A DNA stretch of 63,467 bases, filler included, from Folioceros fuciformis (lineage: Eukaryota), in NCBI GenBank assembly GCA_049999805.1. It is 16 parts of 16 records of this genome, joined end to end, with 100 filler letters (N's around TTAATTAATTAA, not from the genome) between each part and the next. Parts side by side here need not be neighbours in the genome. Positions count along the whole stretch, not along the records: positions 4,367 to 13,709 come from JBNGIO010003728.1; 15 more parts are not named here. One strand, written 5' to 3'. The position numbers and the translations under genes are program-made. Within the stretch, counting starts at the first letter, position 1, and the number at the start of each line of letters is the position of its first letter. Below are positions 4,267 to 47,370 of this stretch, piece by piece. The notes beneath the pieces were generated by a model. That model had not been told where the DNA came from, ran no database searches, and saw only the letters and a list, made by a program, of their open reading frames with translations.

Positions 4267-4557
4267 NNNNNNNNNNNNNNNNNNNNNNNNNNNNNNNNNN
4301 NNNNNNNNNNTTAATTAATTAANNNNNNNNNNNNNNNNNNNNNNNNNNNNNNNNNNNNNNNNNNNNGACAGCCAACCAGCTTGCGCCACCGCCGGGTCTG
4401 TCCTTCTTGCCTAGATCCACCGGCAGCCCCGAGCCGCCTAGATCCTGCCATAGCCCAGGGCGCCCTACCTGCTTGGGTCCGGTCTGCCTTCAACCAGCCT
4501 GACTTGCCTAGATCCACCTCCAGCCCGCCACGGATGTCAGCCTGACTGCTAATCCAG

Positions 4558-4624: not shown

Positions 4625-4965
4625 NNNNNNNNNNNNNNNNNNNNNNNNNNNNNNNNNNNNNNNNNNNNNNNNNNNNNNNNNNNNNNNNNNNNNNNNNNNN
4701 NNNNNNNNNNNNNNNNNNNNNNNNTAACCCGTGTCTTGGTTAAATAAGACATGTTGGGTTAATCTCATTAATACCCCCACTTAAGCCAACATGCTTGGGG
4801 ACGTACACCGCTAACAAACTTCGACTAGGTACGAAAGCGGGTTCCTGCATACACACTCCCTCATTACACCAGCCCGCGCTGAGACAGCATAAGGGACGGG
4901 GAATCGCAGGGCTTCAACCAGAATCGCATGCAGGCGGTGCACTGGCACAAGACATCCACAGCGCA

Positions 4966-7900
4966 ATGCCACCAGGAGCGGGAAGCCATGGAGCCCGACG
5001 CCAAGGAATTTCTGGAGACGAAGCGCCCAACACGCATCAACCTGCAGCTCCGTCACCGCCCGCTCCTACAGACCACGATCTACTGGCACGCCATGCTCAA
5101 GCTCTCCAGGGTCTGCGAGTGAGATGGAGCGGACCATTTGGGGTTGTGAGGCATACAGTTGCAGATGAGGAAGGATCCAGTTCGCACCCTGTTGCCAGTG
5201 TCACCACACTCAATTCCACTGCCAACTCCGAGGGCGAGGAGGAGGAGGAGGTGAACACATACACAAGGTATGTATTACAAAAATCTAAAGAAGCATCTTG
5301 ATTAGAATGATCGTGTGTTGTAGTAAAATAACAAAAGGCAAAGTGTCTTATGCCATACGCCATGGCGGTTAGGTATTTTGTGTTTGTGTCTTTTCACATT
5401 AGGCTATCTAGCCCTAGCTAAAACTCATTTAGCTTAACCTAATTGTTGACTAGCTGACGCTAGACTATTTCTAGGCTTCACTTCGCACCCCCACTTAGTC
5501 GTAGCCGTCAGCCGCCACTGATTTACTTGATCACCGCCACTGATTTACTTGATCACTTCATCTTCCTTCTTCTCGGCTTCAATGTCAGACCTGTGTCTCA
5601 AGCCAAGTCCAACAAAATGCAAGTTATGTTTTTCTTTTGCTAGAGCCTTGGTCAGTAAATCAGCTGTATTGTCATCTGTGGGGATGTAACTGAGACTGAT
5701 TATCTTGTTGGCAATTGCATTTCTTATGAAATGTTGTTTCACCTCCACATGTCTCGTACGAGCATGCGAGATAGGATTCCTGGCTATGGCAATGGCAGAC
5801 TGATTGTCGCAATACATTGGCGTTGGCTCCTGTTGTTGGTAACCTAGAGTTTCCAAGAAATTTCGTAAGTGCATAACTTCTTGAGCTGCAGTTGTGGCTG
5901 CCGCATATTCGGCCTCTGTAGACGATAGTGCAAACACTGTTTGCTTCTTTGAAGACCAACTAACGAGGCCGCCACACACCTTAATACAATATGCAGATAT
6001 GGACCTACGTGAGTCCTTATCATCAGCCCAATCAGAGTCCGTCTTGCACTCCATCCAAGTCCTTCCATCAGCCCCTTTCTTGCTATACAAAAGTCCTAGG
6101 TCGGATGTGCCTTTCAGGTACCTAAGGACACACTTAGCAGCTATCCAATGCTGCTGTCCAGGGTTAGCTAAGAATTGTGAGGCAATTGATGTTGCATGGG
6201 CAATATCTGGTCTAGTCCAGCCACTCAGCCATAGCAGACACCCTACAAGAACTCTATATGGTATATTCTCCATCTCCTTCTGCTCAGCAATAGTCTTGGG
6301 ACATTGATCTTGTGTCAAGGTAGCCCCCACTGCAGCTGGAGTTGCTGCTGGCTTCGCATTTTGCATGTTGAACTTCTCAAGTAATCTATTCACATAATGC
6401 TGCTGATGGAGAAATATGCTTCCCGTCACTGGGTTCATGAGTGCTTGGACACCTAGGAAGAATTTGCAAGGGCCCAAATCTGTCATTTTGAATTCCAATG
6501 ACAAGATGCCTTTTACCTCTTTTATCATGCCATCATCAGATCCAAAAATGATTGTGTCATCAACATACACCGCTAGGTAGGCAGTCTGCCCTTGCTTCTT
6601 ATATACATAGACACTGCCATCAGCATCTGATTGCTTAAACCCTCTCCTTACAAGGTATGTGTGCAACCTCAAGTTCCACCCACGATTTGATTGTTTGAGA
6701 CCATACTGGGTTTTCTTCAGCCTACAAACCTTGCTTGGGTGCTTGGCATCAATATAGCCTTCAGGCTGCATCATGTATACCTCTTCTTCAAGGAGGCCAT
6801 TAAGGAAAGTTGTTTGTACATCCATCTGGTGGATGCGATAACCTTCGTGAGCAGCAACAGCCATAAGTGTCCTTAATGATGACGCACGTACAACAGGAGA
6901 GAAAGTCTCATTGTAGTCTATCCCTTCTCTTTGTGAGAATCCACGCACCACTAGTCTAGCTTTGAACCTAGCTGTGCAGCCATCAGGGTTGAGTTTCCTC
7001 TTGAACACCCATTTGTTTGAAATCGGCCTCCTTCCTTGGGGTAAATCAACTAATTCCCAAGTCTCATTTTCAATGAGGGAATCAAATTCTGATTTGATCG
7101 CTGATTGCCATTGCTCCTTCTCCGGTGAGTTTATGGCTTCTTTGTAGGATGCTGGTTCACCTAGGTCTTGGGCTGCTATGAGTATTTGAGCCAACATGGC
7201 ATTCATATTTGCATTCGGCCGTATGTGCCCTTCCATGGCAAGGGGCACTTGACTCCATTCCAGGGGAGAGCTTGTATGGTGTCTCGATGATGATGGTCTT
7301 GTACTAAAACGGCCACCACAACCCCCTCTTCCTCCTCTGCCAGCATAGAGGACCTGGTTGTGCGAACCTTGGCCTCCACAGCTTGAGTGCATGGTAGCCT
7401 CCTCCTCAAGCAAAGCACCAATAGTGTTGGATAAGGACACAGTAGCAGCAGTGGCAGTCCTCAGGCTGTTGTTTTGTGTACTGACAAATACCTGGTATTT
7501 GTCTGGCAGTGACATGAGCAAAGCCACTGAAGCCTGCAACTCCGTGACTGTCGTGCCTGCGGATGCCAGCTTCTGTCTAAGGTGGGGAAATCGCATCACA
7601 TGCTCCTCAACACTGTCCGTGTCCTTCATCTTACAGTTCCAAAAGGATCTCGTGGCATGTACCAGGGAGGACTGATTTGTGGTCGCAAACATTTGTGACA
7701 AGGCTGTCCAGGCCATGTGTGATCCAGAGGCATCATCGATGTGGTGGATCATTGAACTGTCAATGGTGGCCTCCAATAGGGCCCTTGCTCTAAGGTCTTT
7801 CTTCATCCAGACTGCAACATCGGCCTACGGTGCGTTGGCCCCTGGCTTGGAGATTGTGCCATCCACGATGTCCCACAATTCCTCGACTTGCAGCAAGGTC

Positions 7901-9589
7901 TTGACCCTACGAGCCCACACATCATAATTTGCTCCAGAGAACCGATCCTTGTCCTTGAAGTCAAGCCGTGTCACATTCGCCATGATAGCTGGTGAGCCTG
8001 TCAACCAGGTGGGCAATGTTCCTTGGAGCCAATGTCGAGATTTTGAGGATGTCGATGGTGGTGAAATGGAGCGGGCTTTCACAGGCACGGTATCAACATG
8101 CCGCCCCTTGCTTCTGCATCGTGGCCTCTCAGCAGAAGTTCACCTCTTCGAAGGCATCAACCATGGTAGCAGGTTGTGACATCAAAAACAAATATGGAGG
8201 GATCGCAGTGGCTTGCTCCAGTCTCAGAAGTGCACACTTATTGGCCGCACCCTACAATTGTTGCCACCACGGTTTGCTCTTGCCTCCAATCTTTACCGCC
8301 ACGGCCAAGTAGTGGTCTGATTGCTACTGCTGAAGTTGCTCCATTGAAAATCGCTGTCACCACGGCCTGATTCTGCCTTCACTCCTTGCCGCCGGTGCTT
8401 GAGTTTGCCATCGATTGTTGTCACGTCTCTGCCATGCCTAATTCTGCCTAAGATCGTTGCCACCGCGGGCTGCTGCATCCACGGTTTGCTCCTGCTCTAC
8501 TCGATGTTGCCGCGCCTGGATTCTGCTATGCAACCATCCAAGAACTCCATGCATGTTTGTGCCTACGGCTGGGAGGGAGCGGAGCCCTCACAACCACGCT
8601 CAATCGTGCTAGAAATTCGTTGCCGCGTCGCTGCAAGGTCTGGTTCCCTGCCCCAGTTGCTGCCGCAGATGTTGCCACCTTGGCCTGTGCCAGCCACATA
8701 TTCCTGCCGGGCCGCTGCAGGGCATGATCACCTCCTAGATCACTGCCACAGTGCAATTGCCATGGTTTGTTGACAACTTGGAGAAACATCTGTGTGGCAG
8801 AGAATTCATCGCCTCGACTTGCATCTCGTGCATCAGGACCTCAAAGGAAGCGGGCCCTCACTGCCATACTACACCACACCATCGTCGTGCCGTGCTGTGC
8901 TATGGCATCACACCTCTGATCTCATGCACACGGCATGGATGAGAGAAAAAAAACGTTGGCAATGACAAGCGCGATGCATCCCGGCTTATTGCTCACAAGG
9001 ATTTATTGTTCACATTTTTCCCTTTTTTTATTCCTTTTTTTGTTTCAAAAGGAAAGATCACAATCGCCTCCTCTCCATGGCATCGTTGACCACCTAGCTC
9101 TGATTCCATACAAAAATCTAAAGAAGCATCTTGATTAGAATGATCGCGTGTTGTAGTAAAATAACAAAAGGCAAAGTCTTGTGTCTTATGCCATACGCCA
9201 TGGCGGTTAGGTATTTTGTGTTTATGTGTCTTTTCACATTAGGCTATCTAGCCCTAGCTAAAACTCATTTAGCTTAACCTAATTGTTGACTAGCTGACGC
9301 TAGACTATTTCTAGGCTTCACTTGGCATGTATCCCGACGTCTGGCCCAGAGCTCAAGCCGCAGTGATGTCAACTCTCAGTTGCAAGTAGCCCTCACCAAC
9401 GTAGTAGCAGCAACTAATCTTCTCGAAGCCAAGAGTGCTAAAGAAGATGATCAGCAAGCCACTGTCGAAGAAGATGTACCTGCTCAAGCAGCACCACGAA
9501 TCCCATACAGAAGACAAAGGTGCTGGGTATGTGTTAAGCAAGACGGGAGGTGCACTGTGTGTGGTAGGAAATACCACAAGGAGATCTGA
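4966..9589 (+). CDS. Putative antisense ORF in the outer copia 3' region (4966-5275 + 9333-9589, about 188 aa), split by the nested element
   Basis: Deleting 5276-9332 joins ...EEEEVNTYTRYV to SRRLAQSS...LQVALTNVV...CWVCVKQDGRCTVCGRKYHKEI* in one frame. Confidence 0.5.
5276..5487 (-). repeat. 3' LTR of the nested copia (212 bp, TG...TA)
   Basis: Direct repeat of 9109-9327, bounded by the PPT and the TSD. Confidence 0.95.
5545..7983 (-). pseudogene. Gag-RT-RNaseH in-frame fusion ORF (812 codons, one premature TAG at 7825-7827)
   Basis: ATG at 7983 (MANVTRLDF..FSGANYDVW, copia gag start), UBN2-like gag and an RGG tract, then directly EPASYKEA, RFKARLV, QMDV, YVDD and RNaseH (TDSDWA, SSTEAEY, CDNQSAI, ADLLTK). 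Confidence 0.9.
9109..9327 (-). repeat. 5' LTR of the nested copia (219 bp, TG...TA)
   Basis: Bounded by TSD TGTAT and an abutting tRNA-iMet-type PBS. Confidence 0.95.
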
Positions 9590-9860
9590 CACTAAGCATC
9601 TGTCAAGAGATAGGAGAGTAAGACTTTTCTTCACTAGTCACGTTTAGATTTCTGAACGACAGCTTCATCCCCTGACTAGGATACTCACCCTTACGTGGCT
9701 TGTCACAGGCGTGGACACAAAACAAGCCTCACCAAACAGAAAAAGTTAGGGGGCTTTACTGTTCTGTGTTTTTGGTAATCAGCCTATGATAGGAAGTAGA
9801 AGACACTAGATGACCTACAGAATAGGGAAGAGACCAGACAGCACCCAGACAAGTAATTTA

Positions 9861-12800
9861 TCATGGATAAGTAAATTCTCGTAACCCTAAGGCTGCAACA
9901 TGTTGAAAGTGGCGGCTCCTCAGCAACCCTTTTGTAAGAATGTCTGCAGTGTTGTCATTTGAGTTCACATACTCCACCCTAACAGTTCCACGTTCTACAG
10001 CATCTCGTATATAGTGATGATATAACTCGATATGCTTGGTACGTGCATGAAAGCGTGGATTGGAGACAAGAGCTATCGCACTCATGTTGTCACAGAACAA
10101 AATGGTAGGTCCCTCTTGCTTCTACTGAATTGATTCGAGAAATTGTCTTTCCCACTCAGCTTCCTTGCATGCGTCTATAAGTGCTTTATATTCGGCTTCA
10201 GTTGATGAGAGAGCAAGTGAGGTATGTTTCTTACAGCTCCAACTCACCACAGCGGAAGACAGTAGGAAACAGTAGGCTGAAAGACTTCTCCGAGAATCTG
10301 CATCCGAGGCCCAATCAGCATCTGCAAAGGAGTTAAGTACCAAACTCATACTGCCACTTGCTGAATACTGTAGGCCATAGGAAACAATGCCTTTCAAATA
10401 TCTGTAAATCCGTTTGACAGCAGCCCAATGTATGCGTCCAGGTTGCTTCAAGAACTAAGACACAACACTGACGGAATAACTAATGTCTGGACGGGTCCAA
10501 TTTGAGAGAAAAATTAGGCAACCTACTGCCTCAGCATAAGGGATAGCTGCCATCTCAACCTTGTCATGAGAAGTCTGATCTTCGGCTGTCAACCTAACCC
10601 CCACTACTGAGGGAGTAGCAACTGGTCTAGCATGCTGTAAGTTGAAACGACATAGGATTTCTTTCAAATACTCAGTCATCAATGCATAGTGATTATGCCA
10701 ACTGACCTATTTCTCAATATCTGAATGCCCAGATAGAACTAAAGATCTCCTTGATCTGTCATCTCGAATTCCCAGCGCAACATCTCTTTTACTATGGCAA
10801 GCTGCTCAAGGTTGGTGCTCAACAGCACACAGTCATCCACATACAACGCAAGGATGACAAACTGAGCACCAACGGGAAGGAAGAACACATTGCTATCAGC
10901 AGGAGACTGAAGAAAACCAAGCTGTTTAAGGTACTTCATAATTTGCTTATACCAAGCCCTAGGAGACTGTTTTAAGCCATAGATCGTTTTAAGTAGCCTA
11001 CAAACTTTCTGTGGGTACTTTTTGTCCACAAATCCTTCAGGCTGATCCATGTATAGTGTCTCCTCTAACTCACCATGTAAAAATGTTGTGCAGACATCCA
11101 TCTGCTGTACCTCCAAATCTAGTTCAGCTGCCAAGGTCATCAGAATACGAATGGAAGGGGGTTTTACCACAGGAGAAAACGTATCACCATAATCGATCCC
11201 TGGTATTTGGCTAAACCCCCTTGCTACTAGCCTAGATTTATACCTGGCTATAGTGCCATCAGCATGGAGTTTAGATTTGAAATCCCACTTGCAACTAATG
11301 GGTTTTCGTCCTGTTAGCAGATCAACCAATTCCCACGTCTGGTTTTTAATGAGCGAATTGTACTCATCAGCAATAGAGAGCTTCCATTTTTCTCCATCAG
11401 GACCATGAACAGCTTCAGGATAAGATTGGGGATTAGGTCACACTTCAGGTACACTCAAATCTACAGCTTGTGCTTGAGAGCGACGAAAATCAACTGACTG
11501 ATATGGAGGTTCAGACCATTGCTCCCTAGGATGCCTGTCACGTGAAGGATACCTGGGTTCAGGTTGATCAAGGACTTCAACTGGAGGAAGAACAACTGAA
11601 GGCTCAGAATCTATCTGGTCTTCACCACTAGAAGAAGAACTTTCTAAAACATCCAAGTCCTCATTTAACTCATCATCTGAATGGACAGGTGCTGCTGGAT
11701 CAAGATCACCATCAAGGTGATCAGGGGGATCATCTTGCTCCACATCTAGTGCATCCTCAAGCTCAGGTAATTCAGTTACAGACTCTCCATCCGAACCAAG
11801 ATATTCCACATAAGGAAAGTGTTGAAGTTCAGTTGCTAAACTGACAGGAGTAAATTTGTCTTCAGGAGGCACAGATAATGATTCTGAATTGACCCCCACT
11901 AAAGCAAAGCTGGTCTGAAGCAAGACTTGAACGAGCAGAGATAGGTTCATCAAACACCACACTCCTTGCCAACACCACTCTTTGGGTAGGTGAATCAAGC
12001 AACCTGTAAGCTTTGGTGGTTTATGAATACCCTAGAAAAATATATGGTTTTGTCCTATCATCCAGCTTACGATGACGTGGCTTAGGGACATATGCATATG
12101 CTAGAGAACCAAAGACCCTCAAATGGAGAAGACTTGGTTTCTTCTTCCAAAACACTTCATAGGGGGTTTTTCCGGGAACAGCTACTGTTAACACGCAATT
12201 CAGGATATAAGCTGCTATTGAAATAGCTTCTGCCCATAACCTCTTTGGTAAGCCTGCCCAATTGAGCGTACTTCTTGTCATTCCCATCAAAGTTTGATTC
12301 TTTCTTTCTGCAACTCCATTCTGTTGCTGAGTATATGGTACTGAATACTGATGAATAATGCCTTGTGATTGGAACATATCATCATATCTGTGGCCTGAAA
12401 ACTCCCCACCACCGTTCGAAGACATTTAATGAGGTTTCTAGTATGTCTTTGAACCAAGGAAATCCAGGACTCTATACACTCAAAGGCATCACTCTTGAGC
12501 TTGATTGGAAAGACCCAAGTATATCGAGAGAAATCATCAATCAAGGTAAGGTAATATTCAGCACCACCCAAGGACCTGATTTGAAGCTTTCCAGCAAGGT
12601 CAACATGAACAAGTTCTAAGACTGATGTTGCCCTTTGTGCTTGCTTGTTCTTAAAGGGTAGCTCCTTATGCTTAGAAAGAACACAAGAGCTACACACTGA
12701 CAGATTCTTAAAACAAGGAGGTAGTTTCTCCCTGAAGCTATTCAAAGAGGCCATCAAGTTGAGCTTTTTCTTGTTGACATGTCCTAACCTGGCATGCCAC

Positions 12801-13702
12801 AGATTTGCTTCGGAGGAAGATGACAAGGCATACACGAAGGGGGAAGTAGGACTGACATGCAGCCTATACAAGTCATCCACAAGCTCTCCTCGTGCTATGC
12901 AAAGTCTAGGGGCGGACAGTCTGTACATGCAGCAATTGCCCTGCTCCAAGGTAAAACCATAGCAGCCTGATTTCGTAGCTGCTCTAACAGATAGCAGGTT
13001 CTTGGACATAGCAGGTACGTACAAAACGCCTTCAAGCTATATATCCTCACCTTCCAGCAATGAAATGGTAACTGTTCCTGAATCCTTTACAGCTACACCT
13101 CTCGCATCCCCCACATACACTAACTGAGGTGATGTTTGTGATGTGAAGGTGGAGAATAGACTCTGATTATTGCACACATGTGATGTAGCACTAGAGTCTA
13201 TGAACCAGGCAGAAGAGGGATCTCTGGTGGATGTGAAACAGACTGTAAGAACAGTGGAGCTGCTCTTACAAGAAGAGGTTGCAAAGCCCTTGTCCTTCGT
13301 AGCGACATGAGCCTCTGTCCGAACCTCCTTCTTTGGCTCTCCAGCTTTCGTTTTACGATGGTCTCTCTCCCAATGGCCAGGCAACTAACACCAATGACAA
13401 TTTCCTTGTCTCTTGGTGAGTGAAGCTCCTGTACCACCAGGTATCTTCTTACCCTTGCTCTTCATAAATGGTTTCCCCCTAGCAGCAAATAACACCTTCT
13501 CATTCTTGGCTCTTTGATGTTGCCCCCCAAGTCTATGGCGGGACTGCTCTTCTGGAAAGAGTGCACCAGTAAGCTTGCTGAATGTAAGTGTTTGTGTCTG
13601 CCCAGCGGAGATTGCAACCATAGAAAATCTCAAGGCAGCATTCTGGGTTGAAACAAAACTCTGATAGGAGGGAGGAAGGCTGGACAGTAGCTGAGCAACC
13701 AC
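9861..13702 (-). pseudogene. copia gag-pol polyprotein, disrupted
   Basis: ORF pieces 13385-13702, 13037-13384, 12287-13024, 12021-12425, 11438-11998, 10739-11329, 10455-10682, 10122-10451 and 9861-10100 carry PR, IN, RT and RH motifs separated by stops and frameshifts. Confidence 0.92.
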
Positions 13703-13809
13703 TTCGTTCNNNNNNNNNNNNNNNNNNNNNNNNNNNNNNNNNNNNNNNNNNNNTTAATTAATTAANNNNNNNNNNNNNNNNNNNNNNNNNNNNNNNNNNN
13801 NNNNNNNNN

Positions 13810-15266: not shown

Positions 15267-16617
15267 CTCACTGCACTAGCAAGAGTGAGTTAAGTTGTCC
15301 TGCTAGCCCACCTGGTGACTGTGTCATACCTTGGGCCAGTGTACCTGTACACACCATGAGTCCTGGCATATACATTACATAGTACTGAAAAATAGCAAAG
15401 AGTTGCAGGTACCTGACATGTCCGTCAAAAAACATGCTAGAGCCTTTCTTACCAGGAACTAGTAAAAATTCCAATAGAAATATGGTATTCAAGAGCAAAG
15501 AAATCCAGGAGCAATATGGTGGCCCAATCGGCCGGAGGGTTGCCTTTAGGGTTCGCGTTCCTTCTTTAACGTGTGTACTGCAGATACATATAAGTGGCTC
15601 ATCAAGAAGCAAAGGTGTAGCAAGCGCGATTCGGTGCCTCCTAGGTTCAGGGCTACTAGTTGCTTGGCAATACTCCGCTATCAAGCTCCTTTAGACGGTC
15701 ATAGGCATCCCTCCTAAGGTCACGTTGATGGTCATGTGTTTGTTTCAAGCCTGCTTACCTACGATGGATTGGTGGGATGGTTTGCTTATATCNNNNNNNN
15801 NNNNNNNNNNNNNNNNNNNNNNNNNNNNNNNNNNNNNNNNNNNNNNNNNNNNNNNNNNNNNNNNNNNNNNNNNNNNNNNNNNNNNNNNNNNNTTTGCTTA
15901 TATCCCTCCTAAGGTCAGGTTGATGGTCAGGTGTTTGTTTTAAGCTTGCTTACCTACGGCGGACCGGTGGGATGGTTTGCTTATATCCCTCCTAAGGTCA
16001 GGTTGATGGTCAGTTGTTTGTTTCAAGCCTGCTTACCTGTGGCAGACCGGTGGGATGGTTTGCTTATTGCAACAGGGGAGGAATTTTGTAGGATGTGTAC
16101 CCTTGGTGCCCCTAACAAAAGCTAGCATCTATTCGTCCACTACACCTATGCTCAGGAAGTGTGGGGGGAGTTTGTAGTTAGTTGCAGTGCATCTTTCCAA
16201 CTGCAAACGTTGCTATCGTAGAACAAACAGCTCTCTTCAGCCTTAGGGAACCATTTAGCAAGCCTCTTTTCAGGTTCCAATGGTAGGGCCTATTGTGGAG
16301 CTCTTGCCTCTCTGTCTCTTGCTCAATTGCATTGCGGTGGTTTATGGTGGTAAAGATCCATTGTCAACCAAGGCTATGATGTGGAGCTCTTACCTCTCTA
16401 GTCTCTTGCTCAATTGCATTGCGGTGGTTTATGGTAGTAAAGATCCATTGTTAGCCAAGGCTATGATGTGGAGTATTTCGGTGTAAGTACTAATCGCTGC
16501 AAAAGGGATAAGGATAACATCCTTGAGGAAATTCGAATGCAACGACTGGCTCCGAGCTAATTTTCTTGCTTCATGATGTGAGAAGAGATGGAACCACTTA
16601 TGCCCTTGCAGAAGGTA
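15267..16617 (+). mobile_element. LINE ORF2 C-terminal relic (zf-RVT) with internal tandem duplications
   Basis: IPPKVRLMV.CLFQACLP..DRW repeated about 3 times (about 87-bp unit), then FCRMC...HLFVH...AQEVW. Homologous to 878-1200. A second duplication of about 85 bp lies at 16294-16470. Confidence 0.75.
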
Positions 16618-36511: not shown

Positions 36512-37944
36512 GATACCTTGAGATGAGAGCTGGCTGAAAATGGTATTGAACTCGTTCAGATGATCAGACATCCTCGTCCCTTCCTCCATCTTCAAGTCCA
36601 CCAGCTGTTTCAACCAGTACACCTAAGAAGCTGCACTTTGCTTCTCATACAGGTCACACAACTTCTGTCATAGCTCGTAACTTGTGGTCTTGTCTTTCAC
36701 GTTGAAGTAGACCGACTTTGACAATGTTAGCATGATGGTAGACCTAGCAAACTCATCTAGGTGCTGCCACTCATCCTGAGACATGCTAACGGGTTTCACT
36801 CCTAGCAACTTTATCAGCTTGATCTGCTTCTTCTGCACTAGAACATTATACACTTGTTCTTTCCAGAACGGGAAGTTANNNNNNNNNNNNNNNNNNNNNN
36901 NNNNNNNNNNNNNNNNNNNNNNNNNNNNNNNNNNNNNNNNNNNNNNNNNNNNNNNNNNNNNNNNNNNNNNNNNNNNNNACCCACACCCTCACTTTCGGCA
37001 TCTACGCTCTCGGCGATCGCAGTTCGTTCGCTTTCCGGCGCCCGTCTATTGCGCTCGGCGCCTGGCCAGATCCTTGCCTCGCTAGCGCCCCACTGGCAAA
37101 CAGATGTCGTCCAGGTGTCGCCAACTGGTGCCCAAGTGGCGCCTTGCCGCCGTCCAGGTGTTGCCCTGATGGCACCCCAGTGGCGCCTCGCTGGCGGCCG
37201 GGTGGCGCCTCGTTGGCGCCCCACTAGCGCCTCGTTGGCACCTGGATGGTGCCCCGCTAGCGCCCCACTAGCGCCTTGTTGGCGCCTAGGTGGCACCCCG
37301 TTGGCGCCTTGTTGGCACCCGAGTGGCTCCTCGTTGGCGCCCCGCTCGCGCCCTAGCCCTAGCCGGCGGCTGCGCCCTAGCCGACGGTGGCACCCTAATC
37401 GGTGCCCTAGCCGTTAGCTGCGCCCTAATCGGCGCCCTAGCCGTTAGTTGCGCCCTAATCGGCGCCCTAGCCGGCAGTTGCGCCCTAGCCGCCTCCCTAG
37501 CCGGCGGCTGCGCCCTAGGTGGTGCCCTAGCCCGGCGGCTGCGCCCTAGCCTGGCGGCTGGCACCCTTGCTGCTCCTAGATGTCCGGACATCTTCTTGCC
37601 TTGTGCCTTCGTTCGTAGCACCTACAATAGACACAACCATCTTGCTCCACACCCTAGCTCTCATACCACTTGCAGGACCGCCAAAGGAGCATGGTGAAGG
37701 AGAGGAGAGGAGGAGAAAGAAAGGTCACACTCTCACACAGAGTCTCAAATAGCAAGGGAGCTCAAGGGGTATTTATACCCTCTAGAAGAGCTCCTTAGGA
37801 AGTTTCACAAGAAGCGCACAAGAAGCTGCGTAAGAAGCTTCCTACATATTAGCTTAAGCTAATCTAAACTAATGATACTTAACTAGATACTAATCTTGGA
37901 CTAAACACATTAGTCTAAGCACATTGGGCTTTAATAACCCTACA
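36512..37944 (-). mobile_element. Family D copia 5' end: LTR 37671-37944 (TG..CA), PBS 37657-37668, GC-rich leader with 30-bp tandem repeats, gag start
   Basis: Full LTR matches 55382-55673. PBS reads tggtatgagagc; gag reads YNVLVQKKQIK. Confidence 0.92.
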
Positions 37945-47034: not shown

Positions 47035-47370
47035 ATACTTAAGTTGCAAGGAAAGAAAAGAAGCACAAGACTCTTATGTGGAGTGAAGACTCAAGTTATA
47101 AGGGAAAAAAAGAAACGTGAGGCTCAAGTTACATGGAAAGAAAAGAAACGTGAGACTCAAGTTACAAGGAAAGAAAAAAAAAACTCAAGTTATGAGGAAA
47201 GAAACGACACGTGAAACTCAAGTTACAAGGAAAGGAAAGAAATATGAGACTCAAGTTACAAGAAAAGGAAAAGCAACGTGAGACTCCTATGTGGAGTGAA
47301 GACTCAAATTACAAGGAAAGGAAAGAAAAGTGAGACTCCTATGTGGAGTGAAGACTGAAGTTACAAGAAC
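47035..47370 (+). repeat. About 33-bp purine-rich minisatellite (gactcaagttacaaggaaagaaaagaaacgtga)
   Basis: About 9 units, some with an extra gactcctatgtggagtgaa insert. Confidence 0.8.

Follow-up and report, generated by a model that had tools for sequence, protein, structure and literature searches.

Antisense open reading frames (ORFs) between pol and the 3' long terminal repeat (LTR) have been described in gypsy elements, namely Grande gene23, RIRE2, Retand TRP28, Ogre PMD and PvRetro13 ORF2 (PMC7264820, PMC11963269), and such accessory genes have been regarded as a gypsy trait (Tat/Retand/Ogre) of obscure function, with copia elements outside SIRE taken as minimal gag-pol units. The REXdb survey, which counts ORFs of at least 250 codons, records the extra 3' ORF of SIRE in sense orientation in 74% and in antisense orientation in 1%, gives low extra-ORF percentages for Bianca (5, 2) and Ikeros (4, 6), where the two columns are indistinguishable, and lists none for 13 of 16 copia lineages (PMC6317226); the rarity of antisense accessory ORFs in copia, asserted in a preliminary description of the present DNA, is borne out by these figures. 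Here we describe an antisense gene of copia in Folioceros fuciformis (assembly GCA_049999805.1), represented by a split copy in a decayed Ty1/copia element within a stretch of 63,467 nucleotides that we call the window. The gene is real, selected and not described in the literature searched, and its product belongs to the first (type A) of two new selected protein families, types A and B. In the copia radiation sampled here, most copies carry one of them on the antisense strand, and this also holds for a family that amplified recently.

The 3' regions inspected were those of the 30 best RNaseH matches, of 40 loci chosen from the remaining 120 and of the loci found earlier, giving a non-random sample of 84 distinct loci, 73 of which carry an antisense ORF. 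In position and conservation the copia ORF fits the aORF-3R class, as it lies antisense between pol and the polypurine tract (PPT), occurs in most copies and encodes a conserved protein; position, orientation, presence in most copies, conservation and a still obscure function are all shared with the gypsy aORF-3R (eORF-3'R). In contrast to these, its host is Ty1/copia instead of Ty3/gypsy, it is short (188-220 aa, the 3' region measuring about 1 kb), and two unrelated types occupy the slot. An extra ORF 3' of pol is likewise shared with the copia lineages of REXdb, in which antisense orientation is rare. The env-like ORFs of SIRE and Athila run in sense and encode a transmembrane segment, whereas the copia ORF is antisense and no membrane segment was found in 6 sequences (top 19-residue hydropathy 1.22). 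Like the type A elements, human T-cell leukaemia virus (HTLV) has an antisense gene beside its 3' LTR whose product contains a zipper-like helix (HTLV-1 HBZ, HTLV-2 APH-2); these genes are, however, retroviral, no sequence similarity to them was found, and HBZ is a bZIP protein, whereas the type A helix has no adjoining basic region. HTLV antisense products are nuclear (PMC11963269). Pfam scans of the two pieces of the window ORF, of 18 rows of type A, of two long ORFs and of 14 rows of type B gave no match to Transposase_28/TRP28, PMD, DUF390 or DUF601; no SMC match was found, and bZIP was absent from the window pieces, the type A rows and the long ORFs. Reverse transcriptase (RT) and RNaseH share no more than 40-44% identity with their closest named relatives.

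Type A consists of a heptad helix followed by CxxC-x6-CxxC-G-K/R and lies antisense between RNaseH and the PPT. With the 84-aa 3' piece of the window ORF as query three distant loci were found, one of which in turn gave 37 matches at E up to 1; RNaseH lies downstream on the opposite strand in 28 of the 30 fetched loci (two of which are one element), and the other two end too soon. The four cysteines are kept 26, 27, 28 and 28 times in 28 rows, and the histidine that had been counted as part of the motif 6 times, which removes it from the motif. The cysteine motif is there more often than by chance: among the 84 distinct RNaseH-bearing loci it is present antisense in 27 and on the sense strand in none, and in 25 of these 27 the last cysteine is 273-326 nt from the RNaseH end (301 nt in the window). 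A restricted pattern for MKT-type starts picked them out in 12 of 30 sister loci, at a distance of 175-196 nt from the PPT anchor; the window ATG is at about 194 nt. At columns 13, 20, 27, 34 and 41 of alignment A2 hydrophobic residues make up at least 90% of 17 rows.

Selection on type A was measured in a codon alignment of 23 loci, seven of the 30 being excluded as partial or frameshifted. The antisense frame gave an omega (dN/dS) of 0.31 (likelihood-ratio p of about 1e-45 against 1), compared with 1.36 for the in-register opposite frame and 1.20 and 1.69 for two shifted frames of the same rows, and contained 10 stops in 1967 codons against 59, 137 and 149 in the control frames. RNaseH gave 0.11, the type A protein thus being less conserved than RNaseH; accessory proteins are known for a higher dN/dS than core proteins (PMC13547354). 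A dN/dS near 1 with unconserved cysteines, named beforehand as the outcome that would overturn the proposal, was therefore not seen, as omega is below 1 and the cysteines are kept, and we regard it as nearly certain that the antisense ORF is a genuine coding gene of this clade. Over 21 loci, distances in the type A domain rise with those in RNaseH (rho 0.84; p 0.0005 by permutation), and hence gene and pol have descended together, by vertical inheritance, within one clade of copia. A quick RNaseH tree (80 rows, 85 columns) placed all 30 type A rows within one group of 36, at a weak Shimodaira-Hasegawa-like approximate likelihood-ratio support of 80; the window family falls inside this group, as do, again with weak support, three type B rows.

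The slot between RNaseH and the PPT appears, from sequence comparison, to be exchangeable, with two unrelated antisense proteins occupying one position in related copia elements. Among the 84 loci, 34 hold type A, 38 type B, one both and 11 neither, 11 of the type B rows being seeds of the type B profile; in the locus with both (L028) an LTR lies between A and B. Type B is a 40-residue helix followed by a Pro-containing loop and a short helix, has an omega of 0.23 over 27 rows, where the control frames give 1.2-2.2, and has 98 matches in the genome (loci including L104, L110, L111, L123, L139, L142 and L159-L165). No homology between the two types was detected (hhalign Prob 0.7% and 0.1%), no Pfam family was found in more than one of 14 type B rows, and comparison of folds returned generic coiled coils only (best Z 4.7). 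Four loci, L159-L162 (G000:C1159, C6038, C5146 and C237), represent a recently amplified copia, 99.0-99.5% alike, with an open 205-codon type B frame, and their RNaseH is only 44-45% identical to that of the window element; young copies with an open type B frame and so distant an RNaseH indicate that use of the slot goes far back, is widespread and continues today.

A more distant copia, L148 (G000:C3122; RNaseH 60% identical), has a 183-codon antisense frame 246-795 nt after RNaseH. Its start resembles type A starts and neither profile matches it; judged by its sequence it is possibly a third type of slot ORF.

The window itself is made of separate contigs joined through N-padded linkers (4267-4366, 13710-13809 and similar), and the parts on either side of a linker are not physically linked. 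The outer element lies on the minus strand and is Ty1/copia by its order of gag, protease, integrase, RT and RNaseH with RVT_2; along that strand Pfam matches run Retrotran_gag_2 (below cut-off), Pol_BBD, gag_pre-integrs, rve (below cut-off) and RVT_2 (E 1.9e-61). It is truncated by the contig end at 13709, and most of its 3' LTR falls in a gap, with PPT and LTR start present; in sister copies the LTR measures about 150 bp and has TG...CA ends. The features are as follows.
4725-4773, minus strand: outer copia, first 49 bases of its 3' LTR, with the remainder inside the N gap 4625-4724
4774-4782, minus strand: polypurine tract of the outer copia, from sequence, kept among family copies
4783-4965, plus strand: non-coding leader of the antisense gene, presumably promoter or 5' untranslated region, with frame-breaking indels elsewhere and omega 2.3
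4966-5275, plus strand: 5' piece of the antisense ORF, with the ATG, a Pro/Ser/Arg-rich low-complexity part and an acidic tract near 5231-5254
5271-5275, no strand assigned: left copy of the target site duplication (TSD), TGTAT
5276-9327, minus strand: nested younger copia
9328-9332, no strand assigned: right copy of the TSD, TGTAT
9333-9589, plus strand: 3' piece of the antisense ORF, with the heptad helix (about 9368-9466), CxxC-x6-CxxC (9521-9562) and the stop (9587-9589)
9590-9860, no strand assigned: non-coding spacer in which the stop codons of the antisense ORF and of pol face each other (omega 1.02, indels)
9861-13709, minus strand: outer copia, decayed gag-pol with gag, a protease region, integrase, RT and RNaseH, interrupted by several stops and frame changes

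The preliminary description had proposed an antisense accessory ORF of copia that is hidden by a nested insertion and encodes an acidic tract, a helical segment and a four-cysteine motif; this proposal holds, and the four cysteines prove to be conserved. The regulatory or anti-silencing role suggested there is hypothetical. Arithmetically, removal of the nested element and one TSD joins 481 and 257 bases in frame to 246 codons from 4795; the protein of 188 aa from the ATG at 4966 corresponds to 189 codons including the stop and ends at 9589, the C-terminal residues quoted for it were located at 9335-9589, and the RNaseH stop of the outer copia is indeed at 9861. The PPT exists, and its position had been given one base off (4773-4781), the purine run being 4774-4782. 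DNA searches over 87 Mb of this genome found five uninterrupted copies (L002-L006), which are colinear over the junction and confirm that the two pieces are one gene, and three more partial ones. The ATG is conserved in 7 of 7 rows covering the position. The reading open for 245 codons from 4795, on the other hand, did not survive the comparison: 4795-4965 is open in the window copy only, other copies having 1-2 nt indels and stops, and omega there is 2.3 in the ORF frame, and hence the leader is not coding. Indels common to several copies are of 3 or 6 nt within the ORF and of 1, 2, 15 and 22 nt in leader and spacer; L005 has deletions of 10 and 5 nt inside the ORF. In this family the C-terminal domain has an omega of 0.56 (p=0.014, 5 rows) against 0.74-1.10 in control frames, RNaseH 0.36 (4 rows), the N-terminal half 0.77 (p=0.19, not significant) and the spacer 1.02 over the part tested. 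The window ORF has four cysteines in total, all in the tail. Profile-profile comparison with the sister families gave Prob 95.4% and E 1.7e-8 (reversed control 18.6%). The window copy of the gene is dead, split by the later insertion.

In L021 (G000:C4364), a close sister of the window family, the 3' region spans about 330 nt and holds neither of the two ORFs; it is either a deletion derivative or a natural loss.

The cysteine tail appears most similar to the C-terminal half of CRIPT, its best look-alike in sequence comparisons. Pfam Cript was matched by 15 of 18 type A rows (best E 7.9e-6), the best protein scan against PF10235 scoring 25.3 at a cut-off of 25.5; in the genome search all 11 Cript matches below the host gene are type A loci, two of them reaching the cut-off (29.6 and 25.5 bits), and the top PDB match of the tail is CRIPT (7DVQ, E 0.1). 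The CxxC-x6-CxxC spacing followed by G-K is common to both, whereas CRIPT has eight cysteines in two zinc sites, arranged as an N-terminal, a middle and two C-terminal CxxC pairs, and type A conserves only the four of its tail, which is preceded by a long helix instead; sequence and fold matches to CRIPT and RING proteins are weak. The same spacing is found in the C-terminal half of IAP-type RINGs, whose eight-ligand cross-brace is not matched by four conserved cysteines, and Foldseek aligned the tail with such RINGs weakly over 19 columns (at best E 3.7 in PDB and E 2.0 in BFVD). Cys73/76 and Cys83/86 of CRIPT belong to two different zinc sites (PMC10676203). Thus, of the zinc ribbon suggested in the preliminary description the four conserved cysteines stand, and a self-contained ribbon is doubtful because CxxC pairs of the same spacing serve different zinc ions in CRIPT; with only two such pairs, the copia protein would be expected to complete zinc sites in trans. 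AlphaFold modelled type A as a single helix over residues 6-69, with a predicted local distance difference test score (pLDDT) above 90 over residues 11-50. The host CRIPT gene lies at L150/L151 (G000:C3696:24043-24386, minus strand) and has at least two exons.

Here we propose, tentatively and as somewhat short of probable, that type A is an oligomeric adaptor or decoy for a putative host factor, favouring the element. The accessory gene occupies the antisense strand from the RNaseH stop to the PPT and is inherited with pol; by its orientation and by analogy with Grande gene23, which has an antisense transcript of its own, it may have its own promoter in or beside the 3' LTR. The product is a soluble protein of about 190-220 aa. 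Its head is basic, rich in Pro and Ser and fast-evolving; an acidic patch comes next, then the heptad helix and finally the tail with four Cys, an anatomy read from the sequences with a partly modelled fold. The helix might oligomerise, as has been predicted, through coiled coils, for VANC and for the Athila domain among transposon accessory proteins (PMC13547354), and the two CxxC pairs, if CRIPT and RING geometry is a guide, might bind zinc across subunits or with a partner and not within one chain. Such an oligomer could then act on the host factor and help propagation of the element, e.g. through weakened silencing, and the slot would swap its occupants, as the unrelated helical type B in related copia suggests. 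In a more specific and unlikely version, ancestral type B would have been replaced in one clade by a coiled coil with a half-CRIPT/half-RING module whose zinc sites are completed in trans, by formation of a zinc-clasped dimer or by pairing, as a decoy, with a host zinc-finger protein; it would be a copia counter-defence protein of a new family, in a large unclassified radiation whose standing antisense slot resembles a viral accessory locus.

Several results weigh against this proposal or against the place of the window family in it. Eleven of the 84 loci, L021 among them, have neither ORF; no particular host target is indicated by the comparisons, and the AlphaFold cysteine tail is of low confidence (pLDDT 56-70; predicted template modelling score 0.44). 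All other window-family copies spanning the whole ORF have one to three private stops (3, 3 and 1 in the three readable from ATG to stop). The window family is a divergent member of type A: a sister-only hidden Markov model scores its copies at 3.5-9.2 bits (E 0.04-2.6 among 528 frames), the helix alone gives Prob 4.9% against the sisters, and the fourth heptad position is Glu. Codon-position counts within the family are not significant, which also suits the notion that the frame is no gene, being a chance opening or the shadow of a sense ORF or RNA element; a sense in-register frame of 90-95 codons is, moreover, open in 5 of 5 window-family copies. This notion is hardly credible, since in the sister families the sense frame has an omega of 1.36 and 59 stops against 0.31 and 10 for the antisense frame and shared indels within the ORF are multiples of 3, and for the clade it is refuted.

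Instead of an adaptor or decoy, the protein might be a nuclear DNA- or RNA-binding regulator of element transcription, like Grande gene23, Retand TRP28 or HTLV-1 HBZ, binding through its basic head or its cysteine tail. Both the first 40 residues and the cysteine tail are basic in 4 long stop-free sister ORFs, the heptads are zipper-like, Grande gene23 is nuclear and DNA binding has been predicted for TRP28 (PMC7264820, PMC11963269). We consider this role rather unlikely, as some 100 residues separate the basic head from the helix, which is not the layout of a bZIP, the head is weak in the window family, Pfam matches to TRP28, PMD or bZIP were absent, and type B fills the slot without a cysteine tail. 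Self-restriction of the element appears distinctly unlikely: the protein or an antisense RNA would restrain the element as copy-number control, or the protein would assist particle assembly by binding Gag or integrase. Ty1 offers a precedent for such element-encoded restraint. Co-divergence with pol fits an element-encoded partner, and transcripts running antisense across the 3' end could anneal to the genomic RNA (PMC7264820); selection acts, however, on the amino-acid sequence, so that RNA alone is not a sufficient explanation, and replacement of type B by the unrelated type A within a lineage would fit host conflict better than it would a fixed partner within the element. That the tail is a captured 3' fragment of host CRIPT fused to the helix, acting as a decoy in splicing or RNA processing, is improbable. 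The Cript matches and the 7DVQ hit speak for capture; against it, the tail agrees with host CRIPT at only 5-9 of 17 residues, most of them Cys and G-K, the two are 43-61% identical as DNA with no silent-site excess visible, four of the eight CRIPT ligands are missing, the 84-aa window piece has no match to Pfam Cript, and IAP-type RINGs have the same spacing.

Outside the genome, no homologues were found with the L045 ORF as query (303 candidates, lengths 121-387) or with type B alignment A3 (lengths 141-2000 only), A3 being too diverged for the pattern scan; none of either type were found in metagenome or viral contigs. Such absence is weak evidence, because these collections are poor in eukaryotic repeat DNA. 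The first ESM Atlas matches (0.80 and 0.86) are leads only. A HMMER search of 1.84 billion representatives with A2 returned a single match, to a tandem-repeat peptide, that we judged spurious. No lineage-wide antisense ORF in copia was found in the open literature searched, although the per-element table and sequences of REXdb may list such ORFs, and the accessible part of PMC12477816 holds nothing on antisense copia ORFs. One sequencing run of uncertain kind covers L043 at 2055-2360 only, outside the ORF, and weighs neither way. Both types are below the 250-codon threshold of the main survey, and thus more such genes may have been overlooked. Being small, simply built and mutually exclusive, the two types offer a direct way to test what antisense additional ORFs do.

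The nested copia has LTRs at 5276-5487 and 9109-9327 with TG...TA ends, differing in 2 of 212 aligned columns, and a 759-codon gag-RT-RNaseH frame (5545-7824) in which gag runs directly into RT and a Pfam scan found no protease or integrase match. It is likely non-autonomous and is without an antisense ORF. A long region (8180-9108) lies ahead of its coding part, and only about 57 nt separate pol from its 3' LTR. Elsewhere in the window, tandem arrays with units of 11, 30, 33 and about 83 nt lie at 37075-37532, 47053-47272 and 15707-16070.

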